52,509 nucleotides of DNA from Bacteroidales bacterium (GCA_020859755.1 JAJBVP010000290.1:1-52509); one strand, 5' to 3'; shown: positions 13,480 to 41,395, numbered from the stretch's first letter. Notes: generated by a model not told the origin, from the letters alone. Numbers and translations: made by a program.

Positions 13480-13512
13480 CCCATCGAACAAGATACGAAA
13501 CGGCTTCACCCT

Positions 13513-13552
13513 GAATCCATGTTGTCCTTCGGTCAACATGGATTCAATTTTT
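13513..13552 (+). terminator. Rho-independent terminator after the C10 peptidase gene.
   Basis: Perfect 12-bp stem GAATCCATGTTG / CAACATGGATTC followed by AATTTTT. Confidence 0.85.
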
Positions 13553-13585
13553 AGTGGAAATGAGTAGATTTTCTGCCTTTTGTTG

Positions 13586-13593
13586 TAACTTTG
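13586..13593 (+). promoter_or_regulatory. Candidate -7 promoter box TAACTTTG for the OMP gene.
   Basis: Exact TAnnTTTG match 25 nt upstream of the ATG at 13619. Confidence 0.45.
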
Positions 13594-13618
13594 TGCCCGT
13601 TTGCTGCGTCATAAGAGT

Positions 13619-15844
13619 ATGAAACCGATTCTCACATTTATGCTACTCTCGGTTGCGGCTGCTCTAACAACTTCGGCCAACGAGGCAACTGATTCAATTA
13701 CAAGCTATACCGAGGCCCAACTCGATTCATTGATTACAAGCCTTAACGAGGTGACAGTCACAGCTCAGCGTCCATTGGTCACAAAGGAGATTGATCGCAT
13801 AGGCTACGACGTGCAGGCTGACGACGAGTCGAAAACGGCTACACTAAGCGACATCTTGCGCAAGGTGCCCTTGGTGTCGGTCGACCCCGACGGAACCATC
13901 AAGGTGAAGGGATCCAGCGACTTCAAGATCTATCGCAATGGCCGGCCCAATAACTCCTATTCCAAGAACGCCAAAGAGCTGTTCAAGGCCATCCCCGCAT
14001 CGTCAATCAAGAAGATCGAGGTTATCACGGATCCCGGAGCCAGAGAAGATGCCGAGGGCACAAGTGCTATACTCAACATCGTGACGATGAGCGACTTGCA
14101 ACTGAAAGGCGTGACCGGCCAAGTGTCACTTTCGACCAACTCCAAGAGCCATTGGGCGCCCAATCCCAATTTGTACATAACCACGCAAATCAACAAGGTG
14201 ATACTGTCGGCTTACGGCGGCTGCTTTTTTCAACAGGGGGATTTCTGTAAGGATCACACAGAATCGCGATACGTTTATGATGAAACTGGCAACGTGTTGA
14301 CCGGCAAGTCCCAACGACGTTATCCTGGAGGCACAGGGTGGTTTGGCATCGACGGCAGTTATGAGCTGGATTCGCTCAATCTGTTCACGATGGAGTTCAA
14401 CGGTTACACATATAGGATTAACCAGCATTTTGACCAGCAAGTGGATTTGACCCTTGCCGACGGCACCCCCGGAATGAGCTACCGAGCACTTACCACATAT
14501 CGCCCCATAACTTATTTCGACCTTGGTGGAGGTATCAACTACCAGCGATCCACACGGCGCAAGGGAGAAACCATCACGGCGAGCTATCTCCTTGCCACCA
14601 CCCGACAGCACTCCGACGTAACCGAGGAATACAGCGACAAGGTGAACGCTTCGTTTGATTACGATTCCAAGCTATCCAACACCCGAGCCAACTTCATCGA
14701 GCATACCTTGCAACTCGATTGGGCACGACCGATAAATGCCCATAACAAATTTGACACGGGGACCAAATATATCTATCGTAACAACCACTCCTACAGCACT
14801 TACGATTACATCCCCACTGCGAGCGAATACACCAATTTCAAGCATACCACACAGGTGGGTGCAATCTATGGGGATTATCGGCTGAATGTGAAACGTTGGA
14901 ACTTCCGCGCCGGGCTGCGATTCGAGTACTCTCGCCTTAAAGGTCATAATATAGATCCCGAAGAACCCGCATTTTGCCGATCCCTGCGTGACTGGGTGCC
15001 CAACGCGTCGATCAGTGTGAATATTAACGATGAGAACACGCTGAAAATCAGCTACAACGAGCGCATCAATCGACCCGGCATAACGTATCTTAACCCTGCG
15101 GTGAATTCATCACCTGTGAGCGTGAGCCAAGGCAATCCCGACCTTGTAAGCGCCCGTTACCGCTCCATCAACTTGAATTACTCACTGATTAAGAGCAAGA
15201 TAAACATTGACCTCACCGCAGGTTATACCACTTCCACGGATGGGATAGTGTCAGTGCAACAAGCCATCAACGATGTGATGTATTCCTCCTATGCCAACGT
15301 GGGCCATAATCGCACGTTTAACACCAATCTCTACGTCCAATGGTCGCCATTTGAGAAAACCACATGGATTCTTAACGGTGGCCTTTACTATCGTTACTTT
15401 AAGAACCCTGATTATCAGTTGAGCCACGTGATGGCGCATGGATGGAACGGCTGGATTTGGACCCAAGTGCGCCAGAAACTGCCATGGAAGCTCACCGCCT
15501 CGGTGTCGTTTAACACCTGGAAGAGTGGCGCAACCTCGGCCTACTCCAGCCTGAAGAGCTATCATCCTTATTATTACTCTTTGAATCTTCAGCGCTCGTT
15601 TCTCAAAGATGATCGGCTGACGGTGACCGCAACCGCCATGAATCCATTCGGGCCCAAGGGTGAACACAACCGAGCCTACTCGTTCAACCAAGGACGCGAT
15701 GGCTACCAAGACTCGTGGAGTTCCTACTACCAAAGTTTCCAGCTGCAAGTGAGCTATCGATTCGGCTCGCTCAACGCCAGCGTGAAGAAAACAGCCTCCA
15801 CCATAAAAAACGAGGACGTTGTGGGAGCCAAAGTAGGCAAGTAA
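13619..15844 (+). CDS. Outer-membrane beta-barrel family protein (TonB-dependent-receptor-like plug plus barrel, OMP_b-brl_3 type).
   Basis: Signal peptide MKPILTFMLLSVAAALTTSA. Plug-like region VTVTAQRP...LSDILRKVPLVSVDPDGTIKVKG. The C-terminal half is long and rich in Y/N/S alternation, ending ...LQVSYRFG. The start was trimmed to the ATG at 13619. Confidence 0.85.
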   Translation: MKPILTFMLLSVAAALTTSANEATDSITSYTEAQLDSLITSLNEVTVTAQRPLVTKEIDRIGYDVQADDESKTATLSDILRKVPLVSVDPDGTIKVKGSSDFKIYRNGRPNNSYSKNAKELFKAIPASSIKKIEVITDPGAREDAEGTSAILNIVTMSDLQLKGVTGQVSLSTNSKSHWAPNPNLYITTQINKVILSAYGGCFFQQGDFCKDHTESRYVYDETGNVLTGKSQRRYPGGTGWFGIDGSYELDSLNLFTMEFNGYTYRINQHFDQQVDLTLADGTPGMSYRALTTYRPITYFDLGGGINYQRSTRRKGETITASYLLATTRQHSDVTEEYSDKVNASFDYDSKLSNTRANFIEHTLQLDWARPINAHNKFDTGTKYIYRNNHSYSTYDYIPTASEYTNFKHTTQVGAIYGDYRLNVKRWNFRAGLRFEYSRLKGHNIDPEEPAFCRSLRDWVPNASISVNINDENTLKISYNERINRPGITYLNPAVNSSPVSVSQGNPDLVSARYRSINLNYSLIKSKINIDLTAGYTTSTDGIVSVQQAINDVMYSSYANVGHNRTFNTNLYVQWSPFEKTTWILNGGLYYRYFKNPDYQLSHVMAHGWNGWIWTQVRQKLPWKLTASVSFNTWKSGATSAYSSLKSYHPYYYSLNLQRSFLKDDRLTVTATAMNPFGPKGEHNRAYSFNQGRDGYQDSWSSYYQSFQLQVSYRFGSLNASVKKTASTIKNEDVVGAKVGK

Positions 15845-15915: not shown

Positions 15916-15959
15916 ATAAAAGAAAGACTGCCTGACAACCCAATCGTTATCAAGCAGTC
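15916..15959 (-). terminator. Displaced original terminator of tRNA-Pro, now separated from the tRNA by the inserted element.
   Basis: On the minus strand the sequence runs directly from the 3'-fragment copy of the tRNA into the hairpin GACTGCTTGA / TCAGGCAGTC (one mismatch) and then TTTCTTTTAT. The orientation fits only a minus-strand transcript. Confidence 0.6.
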
Positions 15960-15986
15960 ATTGTCGGGGTGAGAAAATACGAACTT
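15960..15986. repeat. attL-type direct repeat: a 27-bp copy (24/27 identical) of the 3' end of tRNA-Pro.
   Basis: ATTGTCGGGGTGAGAAAATACGAACTT here versus ATTGTCGGGGTGAGAAGACTCGAACTT at 27848-27874. The first 16 nt are identical. Confidence 0.85.
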
Positions 15987-16100
15987 AGGGTAAAATTGAG
16001 TGTCATGTATTTAGAATTGAGATTTTAATTCATTATGGTTTAGCGAGTTGTAAAATAGGTTAGAAAAGTGAGATTTTGTGGGATGTCTTTGAATAACTCA

Positions 16101-16130
16101 AAATTTGTGCGTAAATTTGTGCGTAAATTT
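16101..16130 (+). promoter_or_regulatory. Left copy of the duplicated end module: tandem 12-mers (AAATTTGTGCGT x2). It contains a TAAATTTG -7 box (16112-16119) 19 nt upstream of the int ATG. Candidate integrase arm-type site and/or int promoter.
   Basis: The 27-nt string AATTTGTGCGTAAATTTGTGCGTAAAT at 16102-16128 is repeated exactly, in the same orientation, at 27772-27798. Confidence 0.55.
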
Positions 16131-16138
16131 TTAGGGTT

Positions 16139-17731
16139 ATGGACAAGAAGCAATATCAACTGACTTTCAGATTGGAGAAGCCCCGGAGCGTGAGCGCGAA
16201 GCGCCAGGCACGCGGCGAGGATGTGAGTGAGCAAATACTCCAGGCCGACATCACCTTCGGGCGCAAGCGTTGCCGTTACTACTCTGGCTACCGCGTCAAG
16301 GAAAGCCAATGGGATCAGGAGAAGCAGCAGATGCGACGCAACAATTTCACCAGAAAAGGCGTGAGCGCATCGGATGTTAATGCGAGGCTGGCCAAGATCA
16401 AAGTCGCCGCGGAGCAAGCGTTCTCCGAGCTCGAACATAACGGCATCGAGCCAACCCCGCAGACTGTGATTGAGGGGATTCGTCGATATCTCAGTGAGGA
16501 AAAGACCGAACGGCGTACGGTCGCCGACTGTTATATGGAGCTGATCGAGGAGCGGCGGGTGGAGCTGAAGGAGAGTCCGCAGACAGCGGTGTGGCGCTAC
16601 GGCACGTGGAAGAAGCACCTGACGATGTACAACCACTGGATCGGGTACCGCAAGGGTGCGTATTTCGAGGATGTGACCGCGGCGGTGCTTGACGGCTTCG
16701 AGCGCTATCTGGTGGGGAAGGGCCTGTCGAACTCCTACGTCGGCAAGAGTATGACCGATTTCAACACGTTCCTGAACTGGGCGGTGAAGAAAGGATACTG
16801 CACCAACCTGGCGTTCCGCGAGCGCAAGCAGCTGTTAAGCGACGGCACCAAGAACGAGGCGAGCGTCTATGCGCTATCGGAGGATGAGCTGATGGCGGTG
16901 ATCAACATCGTAACGGCGAGTGCTTCGCTGTGCCGCACCCGCGACGTGTTCGTGTTCTGCTGCTTCTCGGGACTGCGTTTCGGCGACGCGATGGGTCTGC
17001 GGTGGTCGGACATCTATGACGACGGCGTTGACCTCGTTGCTGAGAAGACGGGCCAACATATCCGCATCCCGCTCAACAACACCCTCCGGAAGATTCTCGC
17101 CCGCTACAAGGGTGTCTGCCAGGATGGTCGAGTATTCCCGAAGATCTCCAACCAGAAGTTCAACGACCAGCTGAAGAAGATCGGGCAGTTGGCGGGATTC
17201 AACAGCGAGTGGGTGAAAACCAAGAAGGTGGGGAACACGGTGGTGAAGACGCCGATGAAGAAGTGGGAATGCCTGTCATCGCATGTGGCCCGACGCACGT
17301 TCGTGTCGTACGCGCTGAGCATCGGCATCCCGCCGGAGGTGATCCGCTCCATCACCGGCCACTCCACCTCGAAGATGATGCAGACATACGTGAAACTGAG
17401 CCAGGGCGTTAAACGCGAGTTCATGGAACGGATGGATCAGAATACATCGGCAGAGGAGGACACCCGCACCAAAGAACCCTCCACGGTCTACGACTTGGTG
17501 GAATCAGATACCGACATCAAGTCCCTGGGCGACATGCTGGGTATCCCCGAGCAGAAGAAGTACCTTCGGCAGGTGGAGAAAGAGCCACTGTTGGCTGTGC
17601 TTCACCTTGCCCTCTACCTATGGAACACCAGCGGCGCTTCAGCTGCAGCTCGTTATATCGACTTGCTATCGGGGGATTGGCTCGACACTTTCTATTCCGA
17701 GATCGCTCGCACTCGCAGCTGGAAGAAGTAG
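16139..17731 (+). CDS. Tyrosine-type site-specific integrase (Bacteroides arm-binding N-terminal domain type) with a C-terminal extension of about 100 aa.
   Basis: Catalytic residue contexts FSGLRFGDAMGLRW (Arg), SSHVARRTFVSYAL (His-x-x-Arg) and ITGHSTSKMMQTYVKL (His, Tyr). It is adjacent to attL. Confidence 0.92.
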   Translation: MDKKQYQLTFRLEKPRSVSAKRQARGEDVSEQILQADITFGRKRCRYYSGYRVKESQWDQEKQQMRRNNFTRKGVSASDVNARLAKIKVAAEQAFSELEHNGIEPTPQTVIEGIRRYLSEEKTERRTVADCYMELIEERRVELKESPQTAVWRYGTWKKHLTMYNHWIGYRKGAYFEDVTAAVLDGFERYLVGKGLSNSYVGKSMTDFNTFLNWAVKKGYCTNLAFRERKQLLSDGTKNEASVYALSEDELMAVINIVTASASLCRTRDVFVFCCFSGLRFGDAMGLRWSDIYDDGVDLVAEKTGQHIRIPLNNTLRKILARYKGVCQDGRVFPKISNQKFNDQLKKIGQLAGFNSEWVKTKKVGNTVVKTPMKKWECLSSHVARRTFVSYALSIGIPPEVIRSITGHSTSKMMQTYVKLSQGVKREFMERMDQNTSAEEDTRTKEPSTVYDLVESDTDIKSLGDMLGIPEQKKYLRQVEKEPLLAVLHLALYLWNTSGASAAARYIDLLSGDWLDTFYSEIARTRSWKK

Positions 17732-17758
17732 AAGTTTCATAAATCCGTAGATTTTAGC

Positions 17759-17766
17759 TACTTTTG
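17759..17766 (+). promoter_or_regulatory. Candidate -7 promoter box TACTTTTG for the DUF1016 / LuxR gene pair.
   Basis: Exact TAnnTTTG match 16 nt upstream of the ATG at 17783. Confidence 0.4.
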
Positions 17767-17782
17767 TGGCAGATATTCTCTT

Positions 17783-19000
17783 ATGGACAAAATAGTTTCC
17801 CGCAATCCCTCGGCGTTGGGTGACTTCAATTTTGATGCCCTCACCCAATGCATCTCCACAATTCACTCCGCGTTGCAGTCGTCGGCTGCCAATGCGGTAA
17901 ACCGATTCGCCACCATCCGAAACTGGCTAATTGGCAGATACATCGTTGAATATGAGCAAAATGGCAACGACCGGGCACAGTATGGCGCAAGGCTGCTGCC
18001 TAACATAGTTGAGAAGGTGCGTATTAGAGGCATCAATACGACAATGTTGGCTCATGCTCGGAATTTTTATTTGATGTATCCTCAAGTCATTGAGGCTATT
18101 ACGCCAATTCTCCCGATGCTGTCGGGTAAATTGATAAATATACCATTTTCATTTGATTTGCTATCCTCACCCTCTGATGCAATTTTCCCGACAGCGTCGG
18201 GAAAATTTACGGAGAGTATTGAGCAACAGGCATTTGAGGCCACGGAGAGAATTTGTCCGACGCCGTCGGGCAAATTCACCACTCCAGCCACGACCTTGAT
18301 CTCCAAGCTTTCTTTCTCCCACATCGTGGAGCTTCTGTCAATTGACGACCCGCTGATACGGTTCTTCTATGAATTTGAGTGCATGCGGAATGCGTGGAGC
18401 GTGAAGGAACTCCACCGTCAGATTGTCACCAACTTGCACATACGTGTCGGCTTGAGCAAGAAGCCCGAACTGGCAATGAAAAAACTTGCAGAGATCACTG
18501 AGCAGCAGAACACGCGACTACAGATCAAGGATCCGTTAACGCTTGAATTTCTCGGACTCGACGCTGGAGAGTATGTCACCGAGAATGACTTGGAAACTGG
18601 CCTGATCTCCCATCTTCAAGAATTTATGCTCGAATTGGGCAAGGGGTTCTGTTTCGAGGCGCGCCAAAAGCGAATGATTATTGACGACCGATACTATTTC
18701 GCTGATTTGGTGTTCTATAATCGCTTGCTCCACTGCAACGTGATTCTGGAAATAAAGAACGACGAGTTCAAGCATGAGTATTTGGGGCAACTCAATGCCT
18801 ACGTCTCTTATTATCGTGAAAACGAGATGCAACCAGGCGACAACCCTCCCGTAGGCATTCTCCTCTGCACCCGCAAAGGCAAGCGAATGGTGGAATACGC
18901 CCTTGCAGGGATGGACAACAACCTGTTCGTTTCCACCTACATGTTATGCCTCCCCGACAAGAGGCAGTTGGAAAGCTTCTTGGAGAACGCCATAGATTAG
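17783..19000 (+). CDS. DUF1016 / YhcG-family PD-(D/E)xK nuclease-fold protein.
   Basis: YhcG-like N-terminal domain (VNRFATIRNWLIGRYIVEYEQNG..AQYG). LSFSHIVELL motif. C-terminal nuclease core ...YYFADLVFYNRLLHCNVILEIKNDEF. A central linker carries three PxxSGK(F/L) repeats. Confidence 0.85.
   Translation: MDKIVSRNPSALGDFNFDALTQCISTIHSALQSSAANAVNRFATIRNWLIGRYIVEYEQNGNDRAQYGARLLPNIVEKVRIRGINTTMLAHARNFYLMYPQVIEAITPILPMLSGKLINIPFSFDLLSSPSDAIFPTASGKFTESIEQQAFEATERICPTPSGKFTTPATTLISKLSFSHIVELLSIDDPLIRFFYEFECMRNAWSVKELHRQIVTNLHIRVGLSKKPELAMKKLAEITEQQNTRLQIKDPLTLEFLGLDAGEYVTENDLETGLISHLQEFMLELGKGFCFEARQKRMIIDDRYYFADLVFYNRLLHCNVILEIKNDEFKHEYLGQLNAYVSYYRENEMQPGDNPPVGILLCTRKGKRMVEYALAGMDNNLFVSTYMLCLPDKRQLESFLENAID
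18106..18276. repeat. Three in-frame 27-bp palindromic repeats inside the DUF1016 gene, at 18106-18132, 18181-18207 and 18250-18276.
   Basis: Consensus AATTyTCCCGAC-nnn-GTCGGGnAAATT. The middle copy is a perfect 12-bp-arm palindrome, AATTTTCCCGAC AGC GTCGGGAAAATT. Spacings are 75 and 69 nt, both multiples of 3. Confidence 0.85.
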
Positions 19001-19004
19001 CTAT

Positions 19005-20651
19005 ATGCGAAAACTACTATATATCACAATATTAGCACTTACCGTTGGCTTGTCAGCTTGCTCGCGATCGGCTCGGCAGAAGCAAATCCTTGTTGAGGCT
19101 GAGAGGATAGCCGCTATGTACCCCGATAGTGCGTTAGCCTTGGTAAGCGACATCGATGCCCAAGATCTCAAAGACGCTGACAATAAAGCGCTGTATGCCA
19201 CAGTAATAGCCACGGTCAATAACGTAAAAGAAAGTTCCATGGCCGGAGATTCCCTTATACGCTTTGCCTACAATTTCTATCGAGGGAATGACAAAGAGCG
19301 GTTCCTCCGAAGCGGCAATCTCTATGCGATGCATCTTTTTTGGATGGGCGAAGGAATGGCTTCTCTGGCTGTGCTCGACTCCTTGTTGGCAACTCCCAAT
19401 CTCCCCGATAGCATTGAGATTGAACTACTTCAAACCCGAACGGGGATAGGGGGATCGCTGTTTGACTGCAAGCGCAATATCTGCTACATAAAGCGTCTTC
19501 AGAAGTTGGACAATAACACTGAGGCACAGTTGGATTACAAATATCAGTTGTGCGAGAACTACCAGTTTGCTGGCCAGAGCGACTCGGCATTAACCTTGAT
19601 TGACGAATTGATTGAATATGCTAAAGTACACCAATTGGCTGAGGATCAATTCAAATTTACCTATGAGAAAGTCGGGATTCTGGAGGAGAAAGGTCGTTAT
19701 GCCGAAAGTAACGCTCTCGTGGACTATATCTGGAGTCATGCGCCCGACTACTCCTCCAATTCTTTCCTACACTATTGGAAAGCCCTTAATTATTTCAACT
19801 TGGGGGATTTCAAGAATTCACAGCATCACCTTGCGATAGCCGATAGCAGCGCCATAACCTCGACCGATATTGATCGGGATTACTACGAGAGTTTTGCCCG
19901 ACCTCTCCGGGAGTATTTGGCTTACAAGCAGTCGGGCGTGATAAAATTGACCCAACTGGCTTTTGCCAACAACCTCCAACAGCACAAATCTAACCGTATC
20001 GAGACAAACCGTCGCCAAGCGGAGCAAAATTCGCTCATGGTGGAGAATCGCGCACTTGAGCTTAAAGCCGAAAATCAGCGCAAGACCGCCATTATAATTA
20101 TTGTCATCCTTATCGCCGTCATCATCACGATAATAGCTCTATGGAATATACAAAAACGCAGACGCCGGGTAGTCGAGGCCGAGGAACGAGTTGATGCCCT
20201 CAACAAAATGGTGGAGGAACTTAAGCATCCTACCCCAACTTCTGCGCATGACGCGCTGCGCCGTGCCATGCTCCAACAACTTGGCATTATAAAAATGGTG
20301 GCCGAGACTCCAACTGAACAGAATCGCGAAATGCTGCGTAAAATTTCATCAATGGAGAACGAAGCCACTGGAGGTGCGCTCGTGAATTGGGACAACGTCT
20401 ACGAGATCGTCGACAACCTTTACTCCGATTTCTGCAAAAAGCTTCACAACCGATATGGCGGCATCCTTACTGAGAAAGAAGAACAGGTGATAGTGCTGTT
20501 TGTGGCTGGATTCTCGGCCAAAGAGATCAGCGTCATCACATCTCAATCCACAGCCTCGATCTATGTGCGCAAATCGGCGGTAAAGAAGAAGCTTGGCGTG
20601 GCCGAGAAGGAGGATGTGGTGGATTTTCTGAAACAAGAGCTGACGCGTTAA
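19005..20651 (+). CDS. Membrane-anchored one-component regulator: lipoprotein-type signal, extracytoplasmic TPR-like domain, a single TM helix and a cytoplasmic LuxR-type HTH.
   Basis: N-terminus MRKLLYITILALTVGLSACS. TM segment TAIIIIVILIAVIITIIALW followed by KRRRR. C-terminal HTH LTEKEEQVIVLFVAGFSAKEISVITSQSTASIYVRKSAVKKKLGV. Confidence 0.8.
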   Translation: MRKLLYITILALTVGLSACSRSARQKQILVEAERIAAMYPDSALALVSDIDAQDLKDADNKALYATVIATVNNVKESSMAGDSLIRFAYNFYRGNDKERFLRSGNLYAMHLFWMGEGMASLAVLDSLLATPNLPDSIEIELLQTRTGIGGSLFDCKRNICYIKRLQKLDNNTEAQLDYKYQLCENYQFAGQSDSALTLIDELIEYAKVHQLAEDQFKFTYEKVGILEEKGRYAESNALVDYIWSHAPDYSSNSFLHYWKALNYFNLGDFKNSQHHLAIADSSAITSTDIDRDYYESFARPLREYLAYKQSGVIKLTQLAFANNLQQHKSNRIETNRRQAEQNSLMVENRALELKAENQRKTAIIIIVILIAVIITIIALWNIQKRRRRVVEAEERVDALNKMVEELKHPTPTSAHDALRRAMLQQLGIIKMVAETPTEQNREMLRKISSMENEATGGALVNWDNVYEIVDNLYSDFCKKLHNRYGGILTEKEEQVIVLFVAGFSAKEISVITSQSTASIYVRKSAVKKKLGVAEKEDVVDFLKQELTR

Positions 20652-20808
20652 GGCACTTTTAGATGGGATAGAGCTGATTTTAGAATTTTATAAGAAACAA
20701 CAACTGATAATCAGCTTTTTACAATTTGAAATTTAGATTTTTAGATTTGGTGTTAAGATTGCTTTAGGCGTTACTTTGTGGTACAGAAATCAACAAAAGT
20801 ATCGCAAT

Positions 20809-22902
20809 ATGAACGCCAAAATCTTTACTCAATTCCTGGCCGTGATGCTGGCCATCATCGTCTCCTGTGAAGCAGTCGCCCAAGAGGTGTCCGACACTAT
20901 CACGGGCCAAAGCCTACATGAAGTCGTTGTCCAAGCACCTAAAGTGATCCGCAAAGCGGATATGGATGTCTACTTCCCATCCCAAAGCGCCGTCGAGTAC
21001 TCCCGAAACGGCATGCAGCTTCTCCATAACCTCATGATCCCCTCGCTCTCGGTGGTCGAAGCGATGGGCACGATAAAAGCGGGAGGGCAGTCGGTGCAAG
21101 TACGTATCAACGGTAGGGAGGCCACAATCGATCAGGTGAAGGCTCTACTGCCCCAGACCATCAAGCGGGTGGAATGGATCGACAATCCCGGACTACGTTA
21201 CCAAGGAACCAACTACGTGCTCAACTTCATCGTCGCAAACCCAACACTTGGAGGCTCCATGCAAGCCGAGGATCGTCAGGCTTTGAACACGGCTTGGGGC
21301 GATTATTTCGTTGACAGCAAGTTTAATAACGGCCGTTCTCAGTGGGATGTAGGGGCCAACTTCAAACTCACCAACAAGGTGAAATCTCACCGTGACTACA
21401 CGGAAACTTTCACCTATCCCGACGGCACATCTCTCACCCGCGATGAAACGCCCATCGGGGGACATTGCGACAATACCTATGGGCGACTGTGGGGCGCCTA
21501 CACCTACATCAAGCCTGACACCACAATATTTTATGTGGAGGCCAGCGTGGCTCCCACCTTTTCCGATGACTACTATGCCAAGGGTCGGATGTCGCTCACT
21601 GACGGCTCGGAAGACATACTTCTCTCTGACTCGCATGGCGACCATGGAACTACTCCTCGATTCTCGGCTTACCTTGAACAACATTTTCGCGGACGTCAGA
21701 CACTGGTAGTGGATTTCAACGCCACACTCTACTTCGGCAAATCGTATTCCGACTACCTGGAGCAGACGACAGCACCTCCAGTTGCCACCCTGTCAGACAT
21801 CCACACCATGATTAAAGACCGTAACCAGGCTTACGCTCTCCAAGCCAACTACATCAAGCGATGGAAACAGTCGAAGTTTACCGCAGGCGCCTCATACACA
21901 GCCAACCGTAACCGCTCGCGATACGAAAATTTGGAAGGGGAGGTGTTTCATCAGCACCAAGACAAGGTATATCTGTTCGCCGAATACCTGCAACGCATTC
22001 AGAAAGTTACCCTTACGGCGGGGCTCGGAGCGCAGTTCACCAAATTCCAGTTCAAGGAAACGGAGCAAGGGAACCATTTCTGTAACCTCCGTCCCCAAGC
22101 TTCAATCAACTACCGGCTTAACGACGACCACCAATTCCGGTTGAGTTTCCAGTCATGGCAGTCGGCTCCATCCCTGGCGCAGACCAACGTCGCTCCGCAG
22201 CAAATCGACGGATTCCAATGGAGGATTGGCAACCCGCATCTCAAAACCTCCAACTCTTACCAGCTCACCTTCCGGTACAATTTCAGTCTGCCGATTATGG
22301 AGGTATCTCTTGGCGTCCGTGCCTTCACCAGCCCCAACGCTATTACTCCAATCCTGTATTGGGCCGATGACAAGTTGATTAACTCTTATGAAAACAGTCG
22401 AGGGCTTCAAAACCTCACATTCTTCCTCTCACCGCAGGTGGTGCTTATCCCCAATTGGCTCATGGCAAGCGGCCATGTCCAGTATCGTATGGAGCGTATG
22501 CGTGGCACCGGCTACAAGTTTTACAATCACAACTGGAGCGGCAACGTGGATGTCATGCTCACCCACTGGGGTTTTGAACTGGTTGGGCAATACGTCCGCG
22601 CCCAACACCACCTTTGGGGCGAGAAAATCAGTTGGGGAGAGAACCTCACCATCCTCCAGCTCTCCTACAACTGGCGCAACTGGCAATTCGGAGCGGGAGT
22701 AATCATGCCCTTTGGCAGATACGACCAAGGAAGCAAGATGCTCAGCCCTTGGAACACCAACGAGCAGCACCTCCGTCTCGACATGAGCATGCCCTACGTC
22801 AGCGTTAGCTACCACCTCCAATGGGGACGCCAAAAACGCGGAGCCTCCAAGCTCTTCAACGCCGATGCCTCTGTCGAAAAATCCTCTGCCGCTGGCCGAT
22901 AA
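20809..22902 (+). CDS. Outer-membrane beta-barrel family protein, a paralog type of the 13619-15844 protein, carried as element cargo.
   Basis: Signal peptide MNAKIFTQFLAVMLAIIVSCEAVAQ. Plug-like VVVQAPKV...LLHNLMIPSLSVVEAMGTIKAGG. Barrel-like C-terminal part. The start was trimmed from the TTG at 20776 to the ATG at 20809. Confidence 0.8.
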   Translation: MNAKIFTQFLAVMLAIIVSCEAVAQEVSDTITGQSLHEVVVQAPKVIRKADMDVYFPSQSAVEYSRNGMQLLHNLMIPSLSVVEAMGTIKAGGQSVQVRINGREATIDQVKALLPQTIKRVEWIDNPGLRYQGTNYVLNFIVANPTLGGSMQAEDRQALNTAWGDYFVDSKFNNGRSQWDVGANFKLTNKVKSHRDYTETFTYPDGTSLTRDETPIGGHCDNTYGRLWGAYTYIKPDTTIFYVEASVAPTFSDDYYAKGRMSLTDGSEDILLSDSHGDHGTTPRFSAYLEQHFRGRQTLVVDFNATLYFGKSYSDYLEQTTAPPVATLSDIHTMIKDRNQAYALQANYIKRWKQSKFTAGASYTANRNRSRYENLEGEVFHQHQDKVYLFAEYLQRIQKVTLTAGLGAQFTKFQFKETEQGNHFCNLRPQASINYRLNDDHQFRLSFQSWQSAPSLAQTNVAPQQIDGFQWRIGNPHLKTSNSYQLTFRYNFSLPIMEVSLGVRAFTSPNAITPILYWADDKLINSYENSRGLQNLTFFLSPQVVLIPNWLMASGHVQYRMERMRGTGYKFYNHNWSGNVDVMLTHWGFELVGQYVRAQHHLWGEKISWGENLTILQLSYNWRNWQFGAGVIMPFGRYDQGSKMLSPWNTNEQHLRLDMSMPYVSVSYHLQWGRQKRGASKLFNADASVEKSSAAGR

Positions 22903-22930
22903 TACCCTTGGGGTAGCCTCAGATATCTGC

Positions 22931-23347
22931 CTACTCGTTGGGCGATTGGTAGAAAGAGGCGAGAGGTTCCTTGTGCGCCGAGCAATCCCAACCGACAGGA
23001 CGTGTCATGTAATATAGTCGTTCGATGAGACGGCGTGCGCGCTGTGGATCCTCGTTAAAATTGGAGGCTCGGCACAGGATGTCGATGTCCTGAAGGTCGA
23101 CTATCACGCAGAGACGAAGTCGTAAAATTTGAGCGATGGAACGGAGTTGATCCTGTGAAAAAGGATGTATGCCACGTTCCATTCTCTGGTAATGGGCAGG
23201 GGTGCAGCCGATGACCTTTGCGAGCATCGGCACTGTGATATGAAGCCTCTTGCGGGCTTGGATTAACGCCATTTCGACCGCGCCATAGAAGCGGCTCCAA
23301 TCGCGACGGTAGCGGTTTCGGAGATCGCTGTTGATACAGTTGTTCAT
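22931..23347 (-). CDS. XRE-family helix-turn-helix protein.
   Basis: HTH core ITVPMLAKVIGCTPAHYQRMERGIHPFSQDQLRSIAQIL. Convergent with the OMP gene. Confidence 0.7.
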   Translation of the reverse strand: MNNCINSDLRNRYRRDWSRFYGAVEMALIQARKRLHITVPMLAKVIGCTPAHYQRMERGIHPFSQDQLRSIAQILRLRLCVIVDLQDIDILCRASNFNEDPQRARRLIERLYYMTRPVGWDCSAHKEPLASFYQSPNE

Positions 23348-23619
23348 AATCGGGGGGTTACTGATAAGTGGTCTAAAAATGGGTTAGTGTCAGCTTGCTG
23401 TTACCACATGTTACGCGCAACCGGTGTGGTAAAACCTGCACTCGGAATGCATCGCAATTTCCGAGGTGCGTATTAGGCTCCCTCACCAAGGATGCGAGCG
23501 GTTCGGGCAAGCCCGACGTGTGAGCAGTCTCCATAAAATAGGTTACACTCAACGAGTGGATTATAAAAGTCAGGATCGACACGTTATCGTGGGAATTTTA
23601 TAGCTGAATAGCTCTCAGG

Positions 23620-24507
23620 TTACTGTAACGTGCAGCTGTCAACGGCTGTCCCCTTATTTGCATCCCTTGCCTTAACGTGCCATTCGTTAAGGTCGTTGTG
23701 GGATCGGTACAGAGAGTTGTGTGAGGTGGCTCTGTCTCCGAGCCATGAGGTGATTTCCGCTGTAGCTCTCTCCCCGCCCTCATCATTATCGAGGAATAAG
23801 TGAGCCTCGGCATAAGACTCCAAAACCGCACGGGCTCGAATCAGATTAGCGGTTGAGTTGAGGATAACGGCATCACTCCCCGCGCCCCACCTTTGCAGGA
23901 AAGTGAGGTAGTCGAAGAAGCCCTCAAAGACTGCGACCTTGCCTTTTTTCTTGTGCGCCCGCACAGTAATATCCTTCGGCGAGATGCTCCCCTTGAATTG
24001 CGGATTACGAATCTCGTAGCCTCCCGACTGATTCTTGAAGCCGATTGCGTAACAGGATTTTCCTCTCAGCGCATAGTCGAGTTTGACACATTCGCGACGA
24101 GCCACATCCATCTCGATGCCGCGACTGTCAAGGTAGGCTATCAGCGGCCACTTTCTTAGCGGCGACTCTCGGACTTCTTGATAAGGACTATCGCAATGAG
24201 CCTGGGGCAGAGTGGACGCACAAGGAACAGCCCCCGACTCGACGATTGCCACCAGCGCTTCTGCCACACTTTTGAGGGAGTTCAACCTCATCACAAGGTC
24301 GATGATGGAGCCGCCAATTCCAAGCCCGTGATCGTACCACAGGTTGAGATCAATTGCCACTTTGAACGAGGGTGTGCGCTTCGGATGCAGCGGGGAAAGG
24401 TACCAGACATTACCCTGACTCACTCTGGCGGGTGAATATCCCAGTCTTGCTAAAAAGTCCACGATGGACACCGACTTAGCCTCTTGGATGCTTATTCCGG
24501 TTTTCAT
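23620..24507 (-). CDS. Toprim-domain, DNA-primase-like protein (the type seen as PrmN1 in Bacteroides mobilizable elements).
   Basis: N-terminal degenerate CHC2-like region IVDFLARLGYSPARVSQGNVWYLSPLHPKRTPSFKVAIDLNLWYDHGLGIGGSIIDLV. Toprim-like VAVFEGFFDYLTF and FLDNDEGG. Confidence 0.8.
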   Translation of the reverse strand: MKTGISIQEAKSVSIVDFLARLGYSPARVSQGNVWYLSPLHPKRTPSFKVAIDLNLWYDHGLGIGGSIIDLVMRLNSLKSVAEALVAIVESGAVPCASTLPQAHCDSPYQEVRESPLRKWPLIAYLDSRGIEMDVARRECVKLDYALRGKSCYAIGFKNQSGGYEIRNPQFKGSISPKDITVRAHKKKGKVAVFEGFFDYLTFLQRWGAGSDAVILNSTANLIRARAVLESYAEAHLFLDNDEGGERATAEITSWLGDRATSHNSLYRSHNDLNEWHVKARDANKGTAVDSCTLQ

Positions 24508-24737
24508 ATATAGAATTTCATTGGATAAAAAAACGATGATTCGATGATTTTGCCAATCAAAGAGTTGTGTATTAGAGTCTTACTTCTTCATCACACCTTC
24601 ATCAAAATAGAAGCGGTGAAAGAAGAAAAAGATGACAACTCATCCATTTTATTGATTTGATGAAATATTGATGATTCTATATACCATTGAGTAATAAGTG
24701 CTTATATTCCATATTCATCAATTCATCAAAATTTAGG
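24508..24737. promoter_or_regulatory. AT-rich iteron-like cluster: at least 8 copies of TTCATCA / TGATGA(A/T), arranged in closely spaced pairs. Candidate replication origin or regulatory region.
   Basis: Pairs at 24535/24543 (GATGATT), 24587/24598 (TTCATCA), 24657/24669 (TGATGAA, TGATGAT) and 24714/24722 (TTCATCA). The cluster lies between the helicase-like and toprim genes. Confidence 0.45.
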
Positions 24738-24796
24738 TTATAGTTTCAACGAGTCCAGCAATTTTCGCGTTATCGTGAAGTAGCGGCCTTTGTCCT

Positions 24797-25936
24797 TTAC
24801 GCGGGTGTACTTGGACCCGATGGGAGGGTACTGCCGCTGGATCTTGTCGTAGGCGAGGGAGTTGGGGCATTCTCCAATCCCCAAAACTCATGAAGGATTC
24901 GTTTTACGGTGGTTTTATCGACACGCTCTCCCTCGGCGTTCAGCAGATTCACAACGTCCTTGGGTACCACCCCGATGCTGTCAATGCCCAATTCCGTCAT
25001 GATGTCGTCGAAGAGTTCGATCATGTCAGCTTCCGCGGGATTACGACACGCCCGCATGATTTTGTCAAGAGCCGGGGTGTGGATTTTGTCGGGAGCGAAC
25101 CACATTCTGCTTTCTTTCACCGTCGACATTTGGCGATGCAACAGGAAGTGGAGGAAGGCGGGGATCTCGGATTTGATTTTTTCCAGGGCGTTGGTGTCGT
25201 CACTGTCAAGAGGCTTGACTCTACGCACCCAATAACGTATCTCCTGGCGATCGATGATCAGTGGACGGTACTCGTTGTTGCTGCATAGCACAAACTTGCC
25301 GTAGAACCCCACCTCAACCCGATCCTTCCCTTTCGACTCCGACTTGAACGACAACGCCGTGCTCAGGTTTTTCAGCCGCTCCGAATCCTCTCGGCGATTC
25401 AAGGAGGTTTCATCAATGAGTATCAGCAACTTGGCCATCCAGTCGGCATTGAATCGGCTGCTGAAGTTCTCATTGGTGTTGAACGTGGCGTTCTCCTGAA
25501 AGATTGCCTTCAAAAAGTTGAGGAAGGTGGTTTTGCCCGTCCCGCGGTCAGTGGAGACAAGCAATAGAATCGGTAGTACCTGCTTGGGTTGCAGATACAG
25601 CAGCTGCATGTAGTCCAGGCCCAACTCATACTGTTCCTCGAAGATGTGGCTCAGCAGGTGTTGAATGGTGGACCAATCCCCAGGGGTGGGGACGTGGGAG
25701 ATCGGCTCATATTGGTTGTAGAAGTTTCCGCACTCTCGGCGATAGCCTATATGCGCCGGCTCGATCACGAAGTCGTCAAACTGCGGGATTCTCCTCACCT
25801 CATCCTTCGAGAAGTCCATAACGAGGATTTGCAACTTCCACGGCTTCATCACGGTGCGCTCGTTACCGTCCTCTGAGACGCGGATCAGCTTATAGTAGAC
25901 GGTGCCCACTCGGATGTAATCGTCAATGGTGTTCAT
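24797..25936 (-). CDS. Phage/plasmid primase-associated SF3-helicase-like P-loop NTPase (VirE/D5-C-terminal-like). The 3' end may be frameshifted.
   Basis: Walker A LLLVSTDRGTGKTTF and Walker B KLLILIDE. The last 25 or so residues (APTPSPTTRSSGSTLPSGPSTPA) look like out-of-frame translation. Confidence 0.8.
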   Translation of the reverse strand: MNTIDDYIRVGTVYYKLIRVSEDGNERTVMKPWKLQILVMDFSKDEVRRIPQFDDFVIEPAHIGYRRECGNFYNQYEPISHVPTPGDWSTIQHLLSHIFEEQYELGLDYMQLLYLQPKQVLPILLLVSTDRGTGKTTFLNFLKAIFQENATFNTNENFSSRFNADWMAKLLILIDETSLNRREDSERLKNLSTALSFKSESKGKDRVEVGFYGKFVLCSNNEYRPLIIDRQEIRYWVRRVKPLDSDDTNALEKIKSEIPAFLHFLLHRQMSTVKESRMWFAPDKIHTPALDKIMRACRNPAEADMIELFDDIMTELGIDSIGVVPKDVVNLLNAEGERVDKTTVKRILHEFWGLENAPTPSPTTRSSGSTLPSGPSTPA

Positions 25937-26253
25937 CGGCGGTAGGATTTCAAGTGGGCGTCTCGATTCATACCGGCCAACTCAATGGCCTTCTCCACAT
26001 CGATCACGATCTTTCGACCGATTTGGGTGATGGCGGCGTTGATGCGTCCGCTCTTTTTGATGCGGTTGGCCGTGGGTAGGCTGCAATTGAAGATCTCAGC
26101 GATTCCGGCGATGCCGTACACATATTTCTTCTCGGGATTCTGGGCCGGCACATTCACTGCCGTAGATACCGGCTGAGAGCAGCGACTGAGTTCCAGGAAC
26201 TCCTCGCCGGTCATTTGCCATATGGGCTTTTGTAAAAGGTCAGAAAGGTTCAT
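25933..26253 (-). CDS. DUF3853-like helix-turn-helix (excisionase/MerR-like) protein.
   Basis: MNLSDLLQKPIWQMTGEEFLEL... then KKYVYGIAGIAEIFNCSLPTANRIKKSGRINAAITQIGRKIVIDVEKAIEL. The start was trimmed to the ATG at 26253. There is a 4-nt overlap with the helicase-like gene. Confidence 0.7.
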   Translation of the reverse strand: MNLSDLLQKPIWQMTGEEFLELSRCSQPVSTAVNVPAQNPEKKYVYGIAGIAEIFNCSLPTANRIKKSGRINAAITQIGRKIVIDVEKAIELAGMNRDAHLKSYRR

Positions 26254-26513
26254 TGCGATTAGGGTTAAGTGCATAAAATATTTCTGGCACAAAGGTCTAA
26301 ATTTTCCCTGCAACCACTTAGGTGGAAAACACCAAAAGAATTTAAATCACTTATTCAACTTTTTATCAGAGCGTTACACCACTCAACTTCCTATGTGTTC
26401 ACGCAAGAGAACAGAAACGGTGGAGGGTAACATGGGAATCCCTTCCACAGAGGTGGTGAAATATGATACTAAAGTTGAAAATGTCGGGTGTCGAGCTCCA
26501 CCGTGGTGGACTC

Positions 26514-27626
26514 TTACCAAGGGATGGTAATGTCGGCCTGAGCAAATTCCTTCCTGATATGCTGCACAAACTCCCGATCCTCCGTAGATGCTGAGGATCC
26601 CAAACAGAATGTCGCCTTGGAATCATAGGACTTCCTCTTCAGCCCAAGCACGTTGAGAATCCGCTGAATCCATACCTTGGATCGCTCAGGAGGGAGAAAT
26701 TTCGACAAGGTGTAAATCATCAGGAATAACCTGTTGTTCTGTTCGCCCATCTTCTTCAAGGGACTCGGTGCCGTCGGATGGTTTATACCAAATATAAAGG
26801 CGTCGTCCGACACCCTCCCCAAAATCGTGCCGTTGCACACGCGACACATTATCCGGCACACTTTCTTGGGAAAGATAAGGTCGGTGGCGTTGACCCGTTT
26901 GAACAACTTTTCGTTTTCTACTGCCGTCAACTCATCAATTGGGAACAGGCGATAGGCGGAGACTTGTTCCTTGAGTTTTATAATGGCTTGAATCGCCTTC
27001 TTGAAACTGAAGGTCAGGCCTTTATTTGTTCTTTGCTCTATGTCATCGATATACTGGCCTACGCTTTCAGTCTGCTCCATGATAGCGTCAAACTGCTCAT
27101 TCGCCCCGATTCGCAGCCGCGACGCAAGTCCATGTTTGTCAATCTTCTTGTGACCGCTGAGAGTTTGCAAGGCGCACATCACCTCATATTCCACGGCTTT
27201 CTTCAGCACGTCAGCGGCCTCAGCGGCTTCCACCACTAATCTTTCTCTTTCCTCATTGGCCAGCTTGAGAGCTTTATGTTCCACCTGGAGTGCGTCTATC
27301 TTGTCAAACTCCTCCTGGTGAGCCTCATAAAGCCAAATGATTTTGTTAAACAGGGCAAGGAGCGAGGCGACTCGGCCGATGCCGTCAAAATCCTCGTTTT
27401 TCAACTCTTCCTCGATAGCTGCAGTGAAACTTTTACGCCATTGCGTTCCGGATATACCATGGACAATCGACGACAGTCGCTCCAAATCCCTATAAGTGAT
27501 TCCCACGCCCATGGCCACACTCTCAAAAAGTTCGCACACCCCTTCAAACTCACCGATGCAGCAGCTGATCGTGAGCCTGTCGTTATCGGGATATAACAGA
27601 TCCGTTCCAAGAACGTTCGTAGCCAT
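26514..27626 (-). CDS. Hypothetical 370-aa protein with a central coiled-coil-like region and a CRIMCRVCNG Cys cluster.
   Basis: Long ORF with ordinary amino-acid composition. It is the first gene inside the right end of the element. No family was recognised. Confidence 0.65.
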   Translation of the reverse strand: MATNVLGTDLLYPDNDRLTISCCIGEFEGVCELFESVAMGVGITYRDLERLSSIVHGISGTQWRKSFTAAIEEELKNEDFDGIGRVASLLALFNKIIWLYEAHQEEFDKIDALQVEHKALKLANEERERLVVEAAEAADVLKKAVEYEVMCALQTLSGHKKIDKHGLASRLRIGANEQFDAIMEQTESVGQYIDDIEQRTNKGLTFSFKKAIQAIIKLKEQVSAYRLFPIDELTAVENEKLFKRVNATDLIFPKKVCRIMCRVCNGTILGRVSDDAFIFGINHPTAPSPLKKMGEQNNRLFLMIYTLSKFLPPERSKVWIQRILNVLGLKRKSYDSKATFCLGSSASTEDREFVQHIRKEFAQADITIPW

Positions 27627-27771
27627 GGATGAGGTTAAATAGTCATAACAGGACGAATTGCCCCATCAATTCTAACACCTCATCAAGCTATTGAGTTTAT
27701 ATGATACGCCGATTTGTCCTTGACGAAACGCCCCGATATTCCCCTTTAAAAACGCCACAAGATCCCGCCCC

Positions 27772-27798
27772 AATTTGTGCGTAAATTTGTGCGTAAAT
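27772..27798 (+). promoter_or_regulatory. Right copy of the duplicated end module (AATTTGTGCGTAAATTTGTGCGTAAAT). Candidate arm-type site. It contains a TAAATTTG box facing outward towards attR.
   Basis: Exact 27-nt match to 16102-16128 in the same orientation, about 50 nt inside attR. Confidence 0.55.
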
Positions 27799-27837
27799 AA
27801 AAAGAATCGCTTGCAGATCGCTGTCCTGCAAGCGATT
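27797..27837 (-). terminator. Rho-independent terminator serving the reconstituted tRNA-Pro, supplied by the element.
   Basis: Perfect 12-bp stem AATCGCTTGCAG / CTGCAAGCGATT (27805-27816 / 27826-27837). On the minus strand CTTTTTATTT follows. Confidence 0.8.
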
Positions 27838-27847
27838 ACAATAAATA

Positions 27848-27874
27848 ATTGTCGGGGTGAGAAGACTCGAACTT
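27848..27874. repeat. attR-type direct repeat overlapping the 3' end (T-arm and acceptor) of tRNA-Pro.
   Basis: 24/27 match to 15960-15986. Confidence 0.85.
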
Positions 27875-27925
27875 CCGACCTCCACGTCCCGAACGTGGCG
27901 CGCTAACCAACTGTGCTACACCCCG
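27852..27925 (-). tRNA. tRNA-Pro (anticodon CGG), 74 nt, CCA not encoded.
   Basis: Hand-folded. Acceptor CGGGGTG / CACCCCG. Anticodon stem CCACG / CGTGG with loop TTCGGGA. T-arm GGAAG-TTCGAGT-CTTCT. Discriminator A. Confidence 0.9.
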
Positions 27926-27983: not shown

Positions 27984-28038
27984 AACTACAACTACAAACT
28001 AACAACTAACAACTACAAACTAACAACTAACAACTAAC
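27984..28038. repeat. Heptanucleotide tandem repeat AACTA(A/C)(C/A), 8 units, including a perfect 21-bp duplication (27990-28010 and 28011-28031).
   Basis: Read directly. It lies between the stop of the GH3 fusion gene (28041) and the tRNA-Pro promoter. Confidence 0.9.
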
Positions 28039-40969: not shown

Positions 40970-41369
40970 GGGGCTGACTGGCTTTGACAGCGTGTAGAGG
41001 TGGTACGCAAGCATGCCGAGCGATGATGGCTACGCTCGTTAATCAGAGACATCACCAATTTTAAATGGCGAAAACAACTACGCTCTTGCTGCGTAACCGA
41101 AGTACAGTAGGTTAGCTTAATCGCCGCGACAGTCGTGGCGACAAGACATCACCCGGAAGTTAAACGTCCCGAGACAGTCCGATCAGGTGGTGCACGCAAA
41201 TCGGGAATAGGCCCCGCTCCGCTCCGTGGCGAGGCCGAAAAATTAGGAGATAAGCCCTGGGCACAGGCTGCCGCTCGCCTACCCGGAGACGAAAACCAAC
41301 GAGAGGATAAGCATGTAGAAACCGTATTGTTTCCACGTTTGGACGAGGGTTCAACCCCCTCCAGCTCCA
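40970..41369 (+). ncRNA. ssrA: tmRNA (transfer-messenger RNA), tag peptide GENNYALAA.
   Basis: 5' end GGGGCTGACTGGCTTTGACAGCG. Tag ORF GGC GAA AAC AAC TAC GCT CTT GCT GCG TAA at 41067-41096. 3' end TTTGGACGAGGGTTCAACCCCCTCCAGCTCCA, which pairs with the 5' acceptor. Confidence 0.97.
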
Positions 41370-41395
41370 CAATACTAAGGCGAAAGCCGACGAAA

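Follow-up and report, generated by a model that had tools for sequence, protein, structure and literature searches.

The 11.9-kb stretch between positions 15960 and 27874 of a 52,509-nt piece of Bacteroidales DNA (GCA_020859755.1, JAJBVP010000290.1:1-52509; this whole piece is referred to as the window) is a real mobile island, inserted at the end of a tRNA-Pro gene of a Muribaculaceae bacterium from the gut. The organisation of its backbone appears to be that of the mobilizable elements of the NBU type ("non-replicating Bacteroides units"), and the island would be a relaxase-less member of this lineage. The explanation that we consider rather likely is that it is a derivative of an NBU-like Bacteroidales mobilizable element from which the mobilization module has been lost, and which is possibly decaying. 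That it is a phage satellite is improbable. An element is not a satellite for want of transfer genes alone, and this backbone normally carries a relaxase. The features of the island are collected in Table 1.

Relatives of the backbone

The island carries an operon made up of a gene for a 370-aa protein, DUF3853, a superfamily 3 (SF3) helicase, a repeat-rich spacer and a primase. Relatives of this operon almost always continue with a relaxase gene. The helicase is 54-60% identical to those of 83 Bacteroidales loci from gut metagenomes and IMG/VR, and in 77 of the 83 the primase (37-44% identical) follows directly. A relaxase or probable relaxase comes after the primase in 48 of 49 loci, a count limited to the loci with at least 2.5 kb of sequence beyond the primase. 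The types vary: 27 loci carry NikA together with PF03432, eight carry Mob_Pre and 13 carry a 517-aa protein with an HxDE..HxH motif, leaving a single locus (L137) with none. The 517-aa protein, encoded at 12558-14111 of locus L118 and in 12 other loci, has a sub-threshold match to PF03432 (E 0.058) and is probably a relaxase clade not captured by Pfam. L137 was rejected as a genuine relaxase-less relative, since its downstream part looks chimeric. A large Bacteroidales mobilizable family, related to the NBUs, thus shares the helicase, the repeat-rich spacer and the primase, and the homology of all three to relaxase-bearing loci suggests that the island belongs to the NBU-type lineage.

The 370-aa gene is rare. 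All three of its known relatives are found in NikA/relaxase elements, two of them adjoining tRNA-Ser. Those two, L084 and L085, are contigs of metagenome-assembled genomes (MAGs) in which tRNA-Ser(CGA) is followed by a 368-aa gene (64% identity to the 370-aa protein), DUF3853, a DUF3987 helicase, a primase, a 144-aa gene, a NikA-like gene and a 161-aa gene. The 161-aa product has no Pfam match itself; in alignments it corresponds to the N-terminal region of PF03432 relaxase open reading frames (ORFs) from other loci. The third, L179, carries a 392-aa gene (41% identity), a VapE/DUF5906 primase-helicase, NikA and a PF03432 relaxase. The island therefore has both the 370-aa gene and DUF3853 in common with L084 and L085, and the 370-aa gene with L179.

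Two contigs filed as viral in IMG/VR (L086 and L087) carry an integrase, the helicase, the primase and a Mob_Pre relaxase. None of the ORFs scanned in them is a phage structural gene, and both look like mobilizable elements rather than phages. Identity of the island with a known plasmid or phage was also considered and set aside, as no near DNA match was found. The protein matches in the plasmid collection are Bacteroides records. One of the records, L178 (NZ_OY725957.1, 'plasmid 55' of Bacteroides finegoldii), is 15.9 kb long, is labelled circular and contains an integrase, DUF6043, a DUF5906 helicase and a mannose-1-phosphate guanylyltransferase gene. Its plasmid label looks doubtful, and the record resembles a mislabelled contig.

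Transfer and packaging genes

Searches of the island ORFs against Pfam, NCBIfam and PHROGs recovered no relaxase, coupling protein, capsid or terminase family. Tblastn of the island with four types of relaxase or relaxase fragment from the relatives gave no match and no remnant, and the HxDE..HxH motif occurs in none of its frames. The sole unassigned gene large enough to encode a relaxase is the 370-aa ORF. Its product has no match in Pfam, NCBIfam, PHROGs or PADLOC and only 9 relatives among 1.84 billion representatives. The AlphaFold2 model (pLDDT 83) consists of helices only, and a fold search with it returned no match in the PDB or among the viral structures of BFVD, giving only coiled-coil noise. 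The known HUH-type relaxase folds have a central beta-sheet. Because the model is all-helical, the protein does not look like a relaxase, and its candidacy as a hidden one was dropped on the model and the fold searches. It was equally rejected as a DUF6043 protein (hhalign probability 1.6%). A 4783-aa protein, P0004, contains ten stretches that match the orphan (best over residues 36-110), so that the N-terminal helical unit of the orphan seems to occur elsewhere as a repeat module.

These results bear out a preliminary description of the same DNA, made by reading the sequence by eye, which had seen no relaxase, coupling protein, capsid or terminase genes in the island: profile, tblastn, motif and fold searches all came back empty. 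It had proposed a profile search of the ORFs and a check of the unassigned ones for a relaxase, and neither turned one up. Its view that mobility would need a helper also holds, as no transfer genes are detectable in the element. For the origin of transfer (oriT), the regions upstream of the NikA genes of relatives share with the island only matches of 11-18 nt, which is chance level, and an oriT is too short and diverse to be excluded in this way.

Replication module

The primase and the helicase are encoded in the same direction and are separated by an AT-rich spacer. The spacer contains six copies of TCATCA/TGATGA, in both orientations and in pairs 8-11 bp apart, a count reached in 27 of 2000 shuffles. 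An AT-rich spacer lies at the same place in all 34 non-redundant relatives, each with 5-11 copies of either TCATCA or TCAACA. That the position is conserved and the repeat word differs by lineage points to an array bound by a protein. As the spacer adjoins a helicase of the SF3 initiator type, it is most likely a replication origin. The module shared across the family looks like a working replication origin whose repeat word varies by lineage. An iteron-like cluster 3′ of the helicase gene, as part of a replication-type module with an adjacent ori-like region, had already been pointed out in the preliminary description. Both observations stood up, the first through the shuffles and the equivalent cluster in relatives, the second through the Pfam and NCBIfam assignments and the conserved spacer. 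The cluster is, on the evidence of these relatives, a family trait of relaxase-bearing elements and not a satellite hallmark.

The helicase gene is frameshifted, which the preliminary description had not noted. Near 24855 a C-run has lost 1 nt, and this places the conserved C-terminal 42 aa (24738-24866; ...GRFYTVT...SL) in another frame, and the peptide encoded there aligns to the C-termini of 41 homologues (E 1e-5 to 8e-3). The identical 379-aa product is found in an independent Logan assembly from run SRR15219673.

Attachment sites and the tRNA target

The source of the window was assigned to the Muribaculaceae from the flanking GH3/beta-lactamase gene, whose best matches are Muribaculaceae/Bacteroidales MAGs at 93-94% protein identity. 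The island is bounded by a 27-bp direct repeat identical at 24 of 27 positions, which reads attgtcggggtgagaaAaTAcgaactt at 15960-15986 and attgtcggggtgagaaGaCTcgaactt at 27848-27874. All three mismatches are on the tRNA-body side, leaving a perfect core of 16 bp, ATTGTCGGGGTGAGAA, that is identical to the 3′ end of tRNA-Pro(CGG) at both junctions. Such a pattern is expected if strand exchange fell within the core. The most plausible reading of the mismatched part of the left repeat is an imperfect tRNA mimic that belongs to the element: as a T-arm its T-loop would read TTCGTAT, which lacks the conserved A58. The genuine tRNA sequence is retained in the right copy.

A terminator scan of the tRNA strand found, outside the island at its left junction, a hairpin running from 15959 to 15926 that directly abuts the left repeat. 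This is probably the terminator that tRNA-Pro used originally. In two other Bacteroidales contigs (L118 and L032) an unoccupied tRNA-Pro(CGG) gene has a hairpin and T-run directly 3′, so that the displaced hairpin shows the layout of a native terminator. The tRNA gene is now served by a second terminator from within the island. The attachment site regenerates the tRNA 3′ end, and the element supplies the new terminator. From these junctions the empty site attB is predicted to read ...ccaatcgttatcaagcagtc + ATTGTCGGGGTGAGAA + gactcgaacttccgacc..., and the circle junction attP ...acaataaata + ATTGTCGGGGTGAGAA + aatacgaacttagggtaaaa... The cargo region is lower in G+C (0.47 versus about 0.55).

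The boundaries are essentially those first read by eye. An intact tRNA-Pro(CGG) with a 27-bp repeat as bounds is upheld by ARAGORN, Rfam and the 24/27 identity, and both the original terminator on the left and the perfect internal one on the right were recovered by the scan. An integrative element whose attP regenerates the tRNA 3′ end likewise agrees with the shared core and the duplicated terminators. The tyrosine integrase that had been named was confirmed too; the tandem 12-mer pairs and the location of the integrase far from the tRNA had gone unmentioned.

Table 1. Features of the island and its junctions, in window coordinates
Feature	Position	Strand	Evidence or remark
Displaced hairpin and T-tract, chromosomal side of left junction (probable original terminator)	15926-15959	-	Terminator scan: 14 pairs and tail TTTCTTTTAT
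Left att repeat	15960-15986		16-bp perfect core 15960-15975, then 11 bp best read as an imperfect tRNA mimic
Tandem 12-mer pair, AATTTGTGCGTA twice	16102-16125	+	14 bp upstream of integrase ATG
Tyrosine integrase, 530 aa, arm-binding N-domain	16139-17731	+	Pfam Arm-DNA-bind_5, Phage_int_SAM_5, Phage_integrase
YhcG/DUF1016 PD-(D/E)xK nuclease; cargo, candidate anti-phage defence	17783-19000	+	Pfam YhcG_C 3e-52; PADLOC PDC-S02 1.5e-116
LuxR/GerE-type regulator with weak DUF6377-like region; cargo	19005-20651	+	Pfam GerE 2.6e-6; DUF6377 8.5e-4, below curated cutoff
Outer-membrane beta-barrel protein OMP_b-brl_3; cargo	20776-22902	+	Pfam 1.9e-25
XRE-family helix-turn-helix protein	22931-23347	-	Pfam HTH_3 3.4e-7
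Doubtful 69-aa ORF	23373-23582	-	
DnaG-like primase, CHC2 zinc finger and Toprim_2	23620-24507	-	Pfam, NCBIfam
AT-rich spacer, candidate replication origin	24508-24796		289 bp, 32% GC
DUF5906/P4-type SF3 helicase	24738-25936 (ORF 24797-25936)	-	Pfam DUF5906 1.4e-21
DUF3853 protein	25933-26313	-	Pfam DUF3853 2.9e-34; weak HTH_17 0.0058, below cutoff
Orphan 370-aa protein, all-alpha (model); first gene at tRNA-proximal end	26514-27626	-	
Second tandem 12-mer pair, AATTTGTGCGTA twice	27772-27795	+	53 bp inside right core, same orientation as the first pair
Element-borne terminator now serving tRNA-Pro	27805-27837	-	Terminator scan: 13 perfect pairs and CTTTTTATTT
Right att repeat	27848-27874		24/27 identical to left copy
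tRNA-Pro(CGG), intact, integration target	27851-27925	-	ARAGORN; Rfam 60.8 bits

Integrase and arm-type repeats

The integrase gene lies at the end of the island far from the tRNA, with the left core 163 bp upstream of it. The ORF is of full length (homologues of 512-544 aa cover 93-100% of the protein) and keeps the conserved residues R268, K303, H382, R385, H408 and Y417. From its domains and residues it is recognisable as a heterobivalent tyrosine integrase with an intact catalytic site. Its relatives were of no use as a guide to the type of element, serving as they do a conjugative transposon and a prophage-like element.

A tandem pair of 12-mers lies just inside each end of the island. 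The 27-mer at 27772-27798 is identical to the copy at the left end, and elsewhere in the window the exact 12-mer is absent. Once attP is reconstructed, the core would have one pair on either side, in the manner of the arm-type sites of integrases with an arm-binding domain. This arrangement, together with the Arm-DNA-bind_5 domain of the integrase, makes them probable integrase arm sites. In L176, whose integrase is 46-47% identical, the corresponding position upstream of the integrase holds AAATTTGTATGT three times, two of the copies in tandem. The 12-mers contain TAAATTTG, which we take to fit the Bacteroides -7 promoter consensus TAnnTTTG. The pair at 16102-16125 may also have a promoter or operator role, inseparable from that of an arm site.

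Population and occupancy of the site

All Logan contigs with genes of the island come from the SRR152196xx accession series and are 100% identical to the window. Six of them, from six runs, carry the integrase and run into the left chromosomal flank, crossing attL without a branch. No attP junction was found in these six, and no second location of the element was seen among the Logan contigs. The predicted empty-junction 31-mer had no exact match in the metagenome collection, and exact-protein look-ups of the flanking genes returned only short Logan contigs of the same population, none with an empty site. Contig breaks at 27876-27879 fall inside the tRNA body, before the repeat, and carry no information on occupancy.

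The two nearest species representatives, L003 and L004 (with a protein identity of 93-94% on GH3), have no tRNA-Pro after the GH3 gene. Synteny with them breaks off precisely where the GH3/beta-lactamase gene stops (window 28041). The tRNA and everything to its left therefore belong to a different arrangement, and the two genomes are unusable as empty sites.

Proposed mechanism

In elements of this kind the integrase, with DUF3853 as a possible directionality factor, would excise a circle at the 16-bp core. The helicase and primase would then fire at the spacer repeats and keep the circle from being lost. In the relatives the circle would be nicked by the element's own relaxase and moved through the mating pore of a conjugative transposon. 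In the present copy the XRE gene appears to fill the position of the relaxase, next to a cargo block with a candidate defence nuclease, a regulator and an outer-membrane barrel, and the helicase seems to have lost its conserved C-terminus. For this copy a stranded or decaying derivative comes first in likelihood, followed by transfer through a foreign relaxase acting on an unrecognised oriT, and last by a satellite.

The signs of decay or fixation are the helicase frameshift, the occurrence in a single accession series at 100% identity and the unbranched attL in six runs. Several points weigh against the loss of a mobilization module and subsequent decay. The loss is deduced by comparison, and with the nearest relatives only 41-64% identical the ancestor may have lacked a relaxase from the start. 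The intact integrase, att core and arm repeats, the two arm pairs being identical, argue against long inactivity, and the frameshift removes only about 42 residues of the helicase. Short Logan contigs drop low-frequency variants, which makes the absence of a branch weak evidence. No oriT, helper element, empty site or circular junction was found, so that the island may be mobile or immobile. A relaxase-less copy with intact recombination sites offers a case for asking how often the mobilizable islands of gut Bacteroidota become stranded or switch helpers.

Comparison with known systems and alternative explanations

Like NBU1 and NBU2 (and Tn4555 and cLV25), the island has a tyrosine integrase, an insertion at a tRNA 3′ end with direct repeats, and a length in the range of 10-13 kb, cargo genes included. 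The NBU1 backbone carries a primase gene, PrmN1. The helicase and primase of the island are homologous to those of relaxase-carrying Bacteroidales elements. NBU-type elements insert at tRNA genes (tRNA-Leu for NBU1, tRNA-Ser for NBU2 and tRNA-Pro for Tn6031) and are moved by conjugative transposons (PMC5704250). In contrast to them, the island has neither a relaxase nor a recognisable oriT. Its integrase belongs to a longer clade (about 520 aa), other members of which serve a conjugative transposon and a prophage-like element, and its tRNA-proximal 370-aa gene is nearly unique to it and three relatives.

It is possible, though distinctly less likely than a stranded derivative, that the island is a functional relaxase-less mobilizable island in which an oriT is recognised by the relaxase of a co-resident element and transfer is conjugative. 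The island shares an integrase and att sites, the absence of a relaxase and helper-dependent transfer with the mobilizable genomic islands (MGIs) or iOriT islands such as MGIVflInd1. In favour are the intact recombination apparatus and the lineage, which is otherwise mobilized by conjugation. Relaxase-less integrative and mobilizable elements that mimic the oriT of their helper are known in Proteobacteria and Firmicutes (PMC5704250, PMC11389934). However, those islands have a demonstrated mimic of the helper oriT and usually no primase-helicase, whereas no oriT could be identified here and the similarity to the NikA-upstream regions of relatives stays at chance level. Also speaking against this explanation are the lack of a helper within the 52-kb window and the identical copies in one population at one site only.

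A phage satellite is improbable. A satellite of the type of the phage-inducible chromosomal islands (PICIs) or PICMIs would be excised on induction by a helper phage, amplified as a circle by helicase, primase and origin, and packaged into helper capsids through an unrecognised pac or cos site. Its size of 11.9 kb, the integrase, the helix-turn-helix regulators, the primase-helicase with an adjacent iteron-like origin, the lack of transfer and structural genes and the candidate defence gene in the cargo all resemble such an element, as does the range of 10-15 kb. The layout of primase, helicase and origin is that of the pri-rep-ori module of the Staphylococcus aureus pathogenicity islands (SaPIs), where the repeat-type origin likewise stands beside the initiator helicase gene. 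The island also resembles phage P4 with its alpha protein and ori, as the island helicase has a P4-family SF3 domain (NCBIfam primase_Cterm) and stands beside short repeats. The C-terminal domain of P4 alpha binds the ori repeats. Unlike in P4, primase and helicase are separate genes in the island, sid, psu and delta are absent, and the C-terminal segment of the helicase is the part that is frameshifted.

The preliminary description had placed the island closer to the PICIs and other satellites than to the NBU/Tn4555-type elements, and this placement is not sustained. Against it stand the known or probable relaxase that follows the primase in nearly all informative loci, the relaxase elements in which the relatives of the 370-aa gene are found, and the genes of the island itself. 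Of the five PICI core components the island has only three; Pfam and PHROG gave neither a small terminase nor a gene for capsid morphogenesis (PICI definition in PMC10085698). The regulation module of PICIs, of the AlpA, MerR or Stl type, is typically divergent from the replication operon. The island has no divergent repressor/activator switch: XRE and the HTH_17-like DUF3853 are present but co-directional with the replication genes, and the backbone genes all point one way. The replication genes are related to those of elements mobilized by conjugation, and the IMG/VR relatives of the helicase are the Mob_Pre elements. The 370-aa gene has no relative in IMG/VR, its model has no match among viral structures, and a DNA comparison of the island with phages gave no match. 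Proteobacteria and Firmicutes account for more than 99.9% of known PICIs, and no PICI from the host phylum is described in that survey (PMC10085698). Minimal satellites that lack capsid-remodelling genes do exist (PMC10803314).

Slightly less probable still is a mixed history in which a mobilizable backbone turned into a satellite dependent on a helper phage. The relaxase would have been swapped for a regulator with the replicon kept, and the 370-aa coiled-coil protein or XRE/DUF3853 would interfere with a Muribaculaceae phage. If true, it would be a direct example of a switch from conjugative to viral hitch-hiking, in a phylum from which, as far as the literature searched shows, no satellite lineage has been described before.

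[quoted passage not shown]

Cargo and other genes

The list of genes first read from the sequence (integrase, XRE protein, primase, helicase and DUF3853) is supported by Pfam; it had omitted the three cargo genes and the 370-aa orphan. The XRE gene occupies the position of the mobilization genes in relatives, and the linkage of primase, XRE and barrel genes was confirmed in Logan contigs L173 and L174. DUF3853 is a candidate excisionase or regulator. The cargo barrel shares only about 21-27% identity with the barrel gene that flanks the island at 13601-15844. Two related loci, L091 and L141, carry homologues of the YhcG/DUF1016 nuclease (66-74% identity) close to their edge.

Outside the island, a 21-nt tandem repeat, AACTACAAACTAACAACTAAC, is present in two copies at 27990-28037, between the stop of the GH3 gene and the 5′ side of tRNA-Pro. 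An ordinary tmRNA gene is located at 40970-41372 of the window and encodes the tag peptide GENNYALAA.

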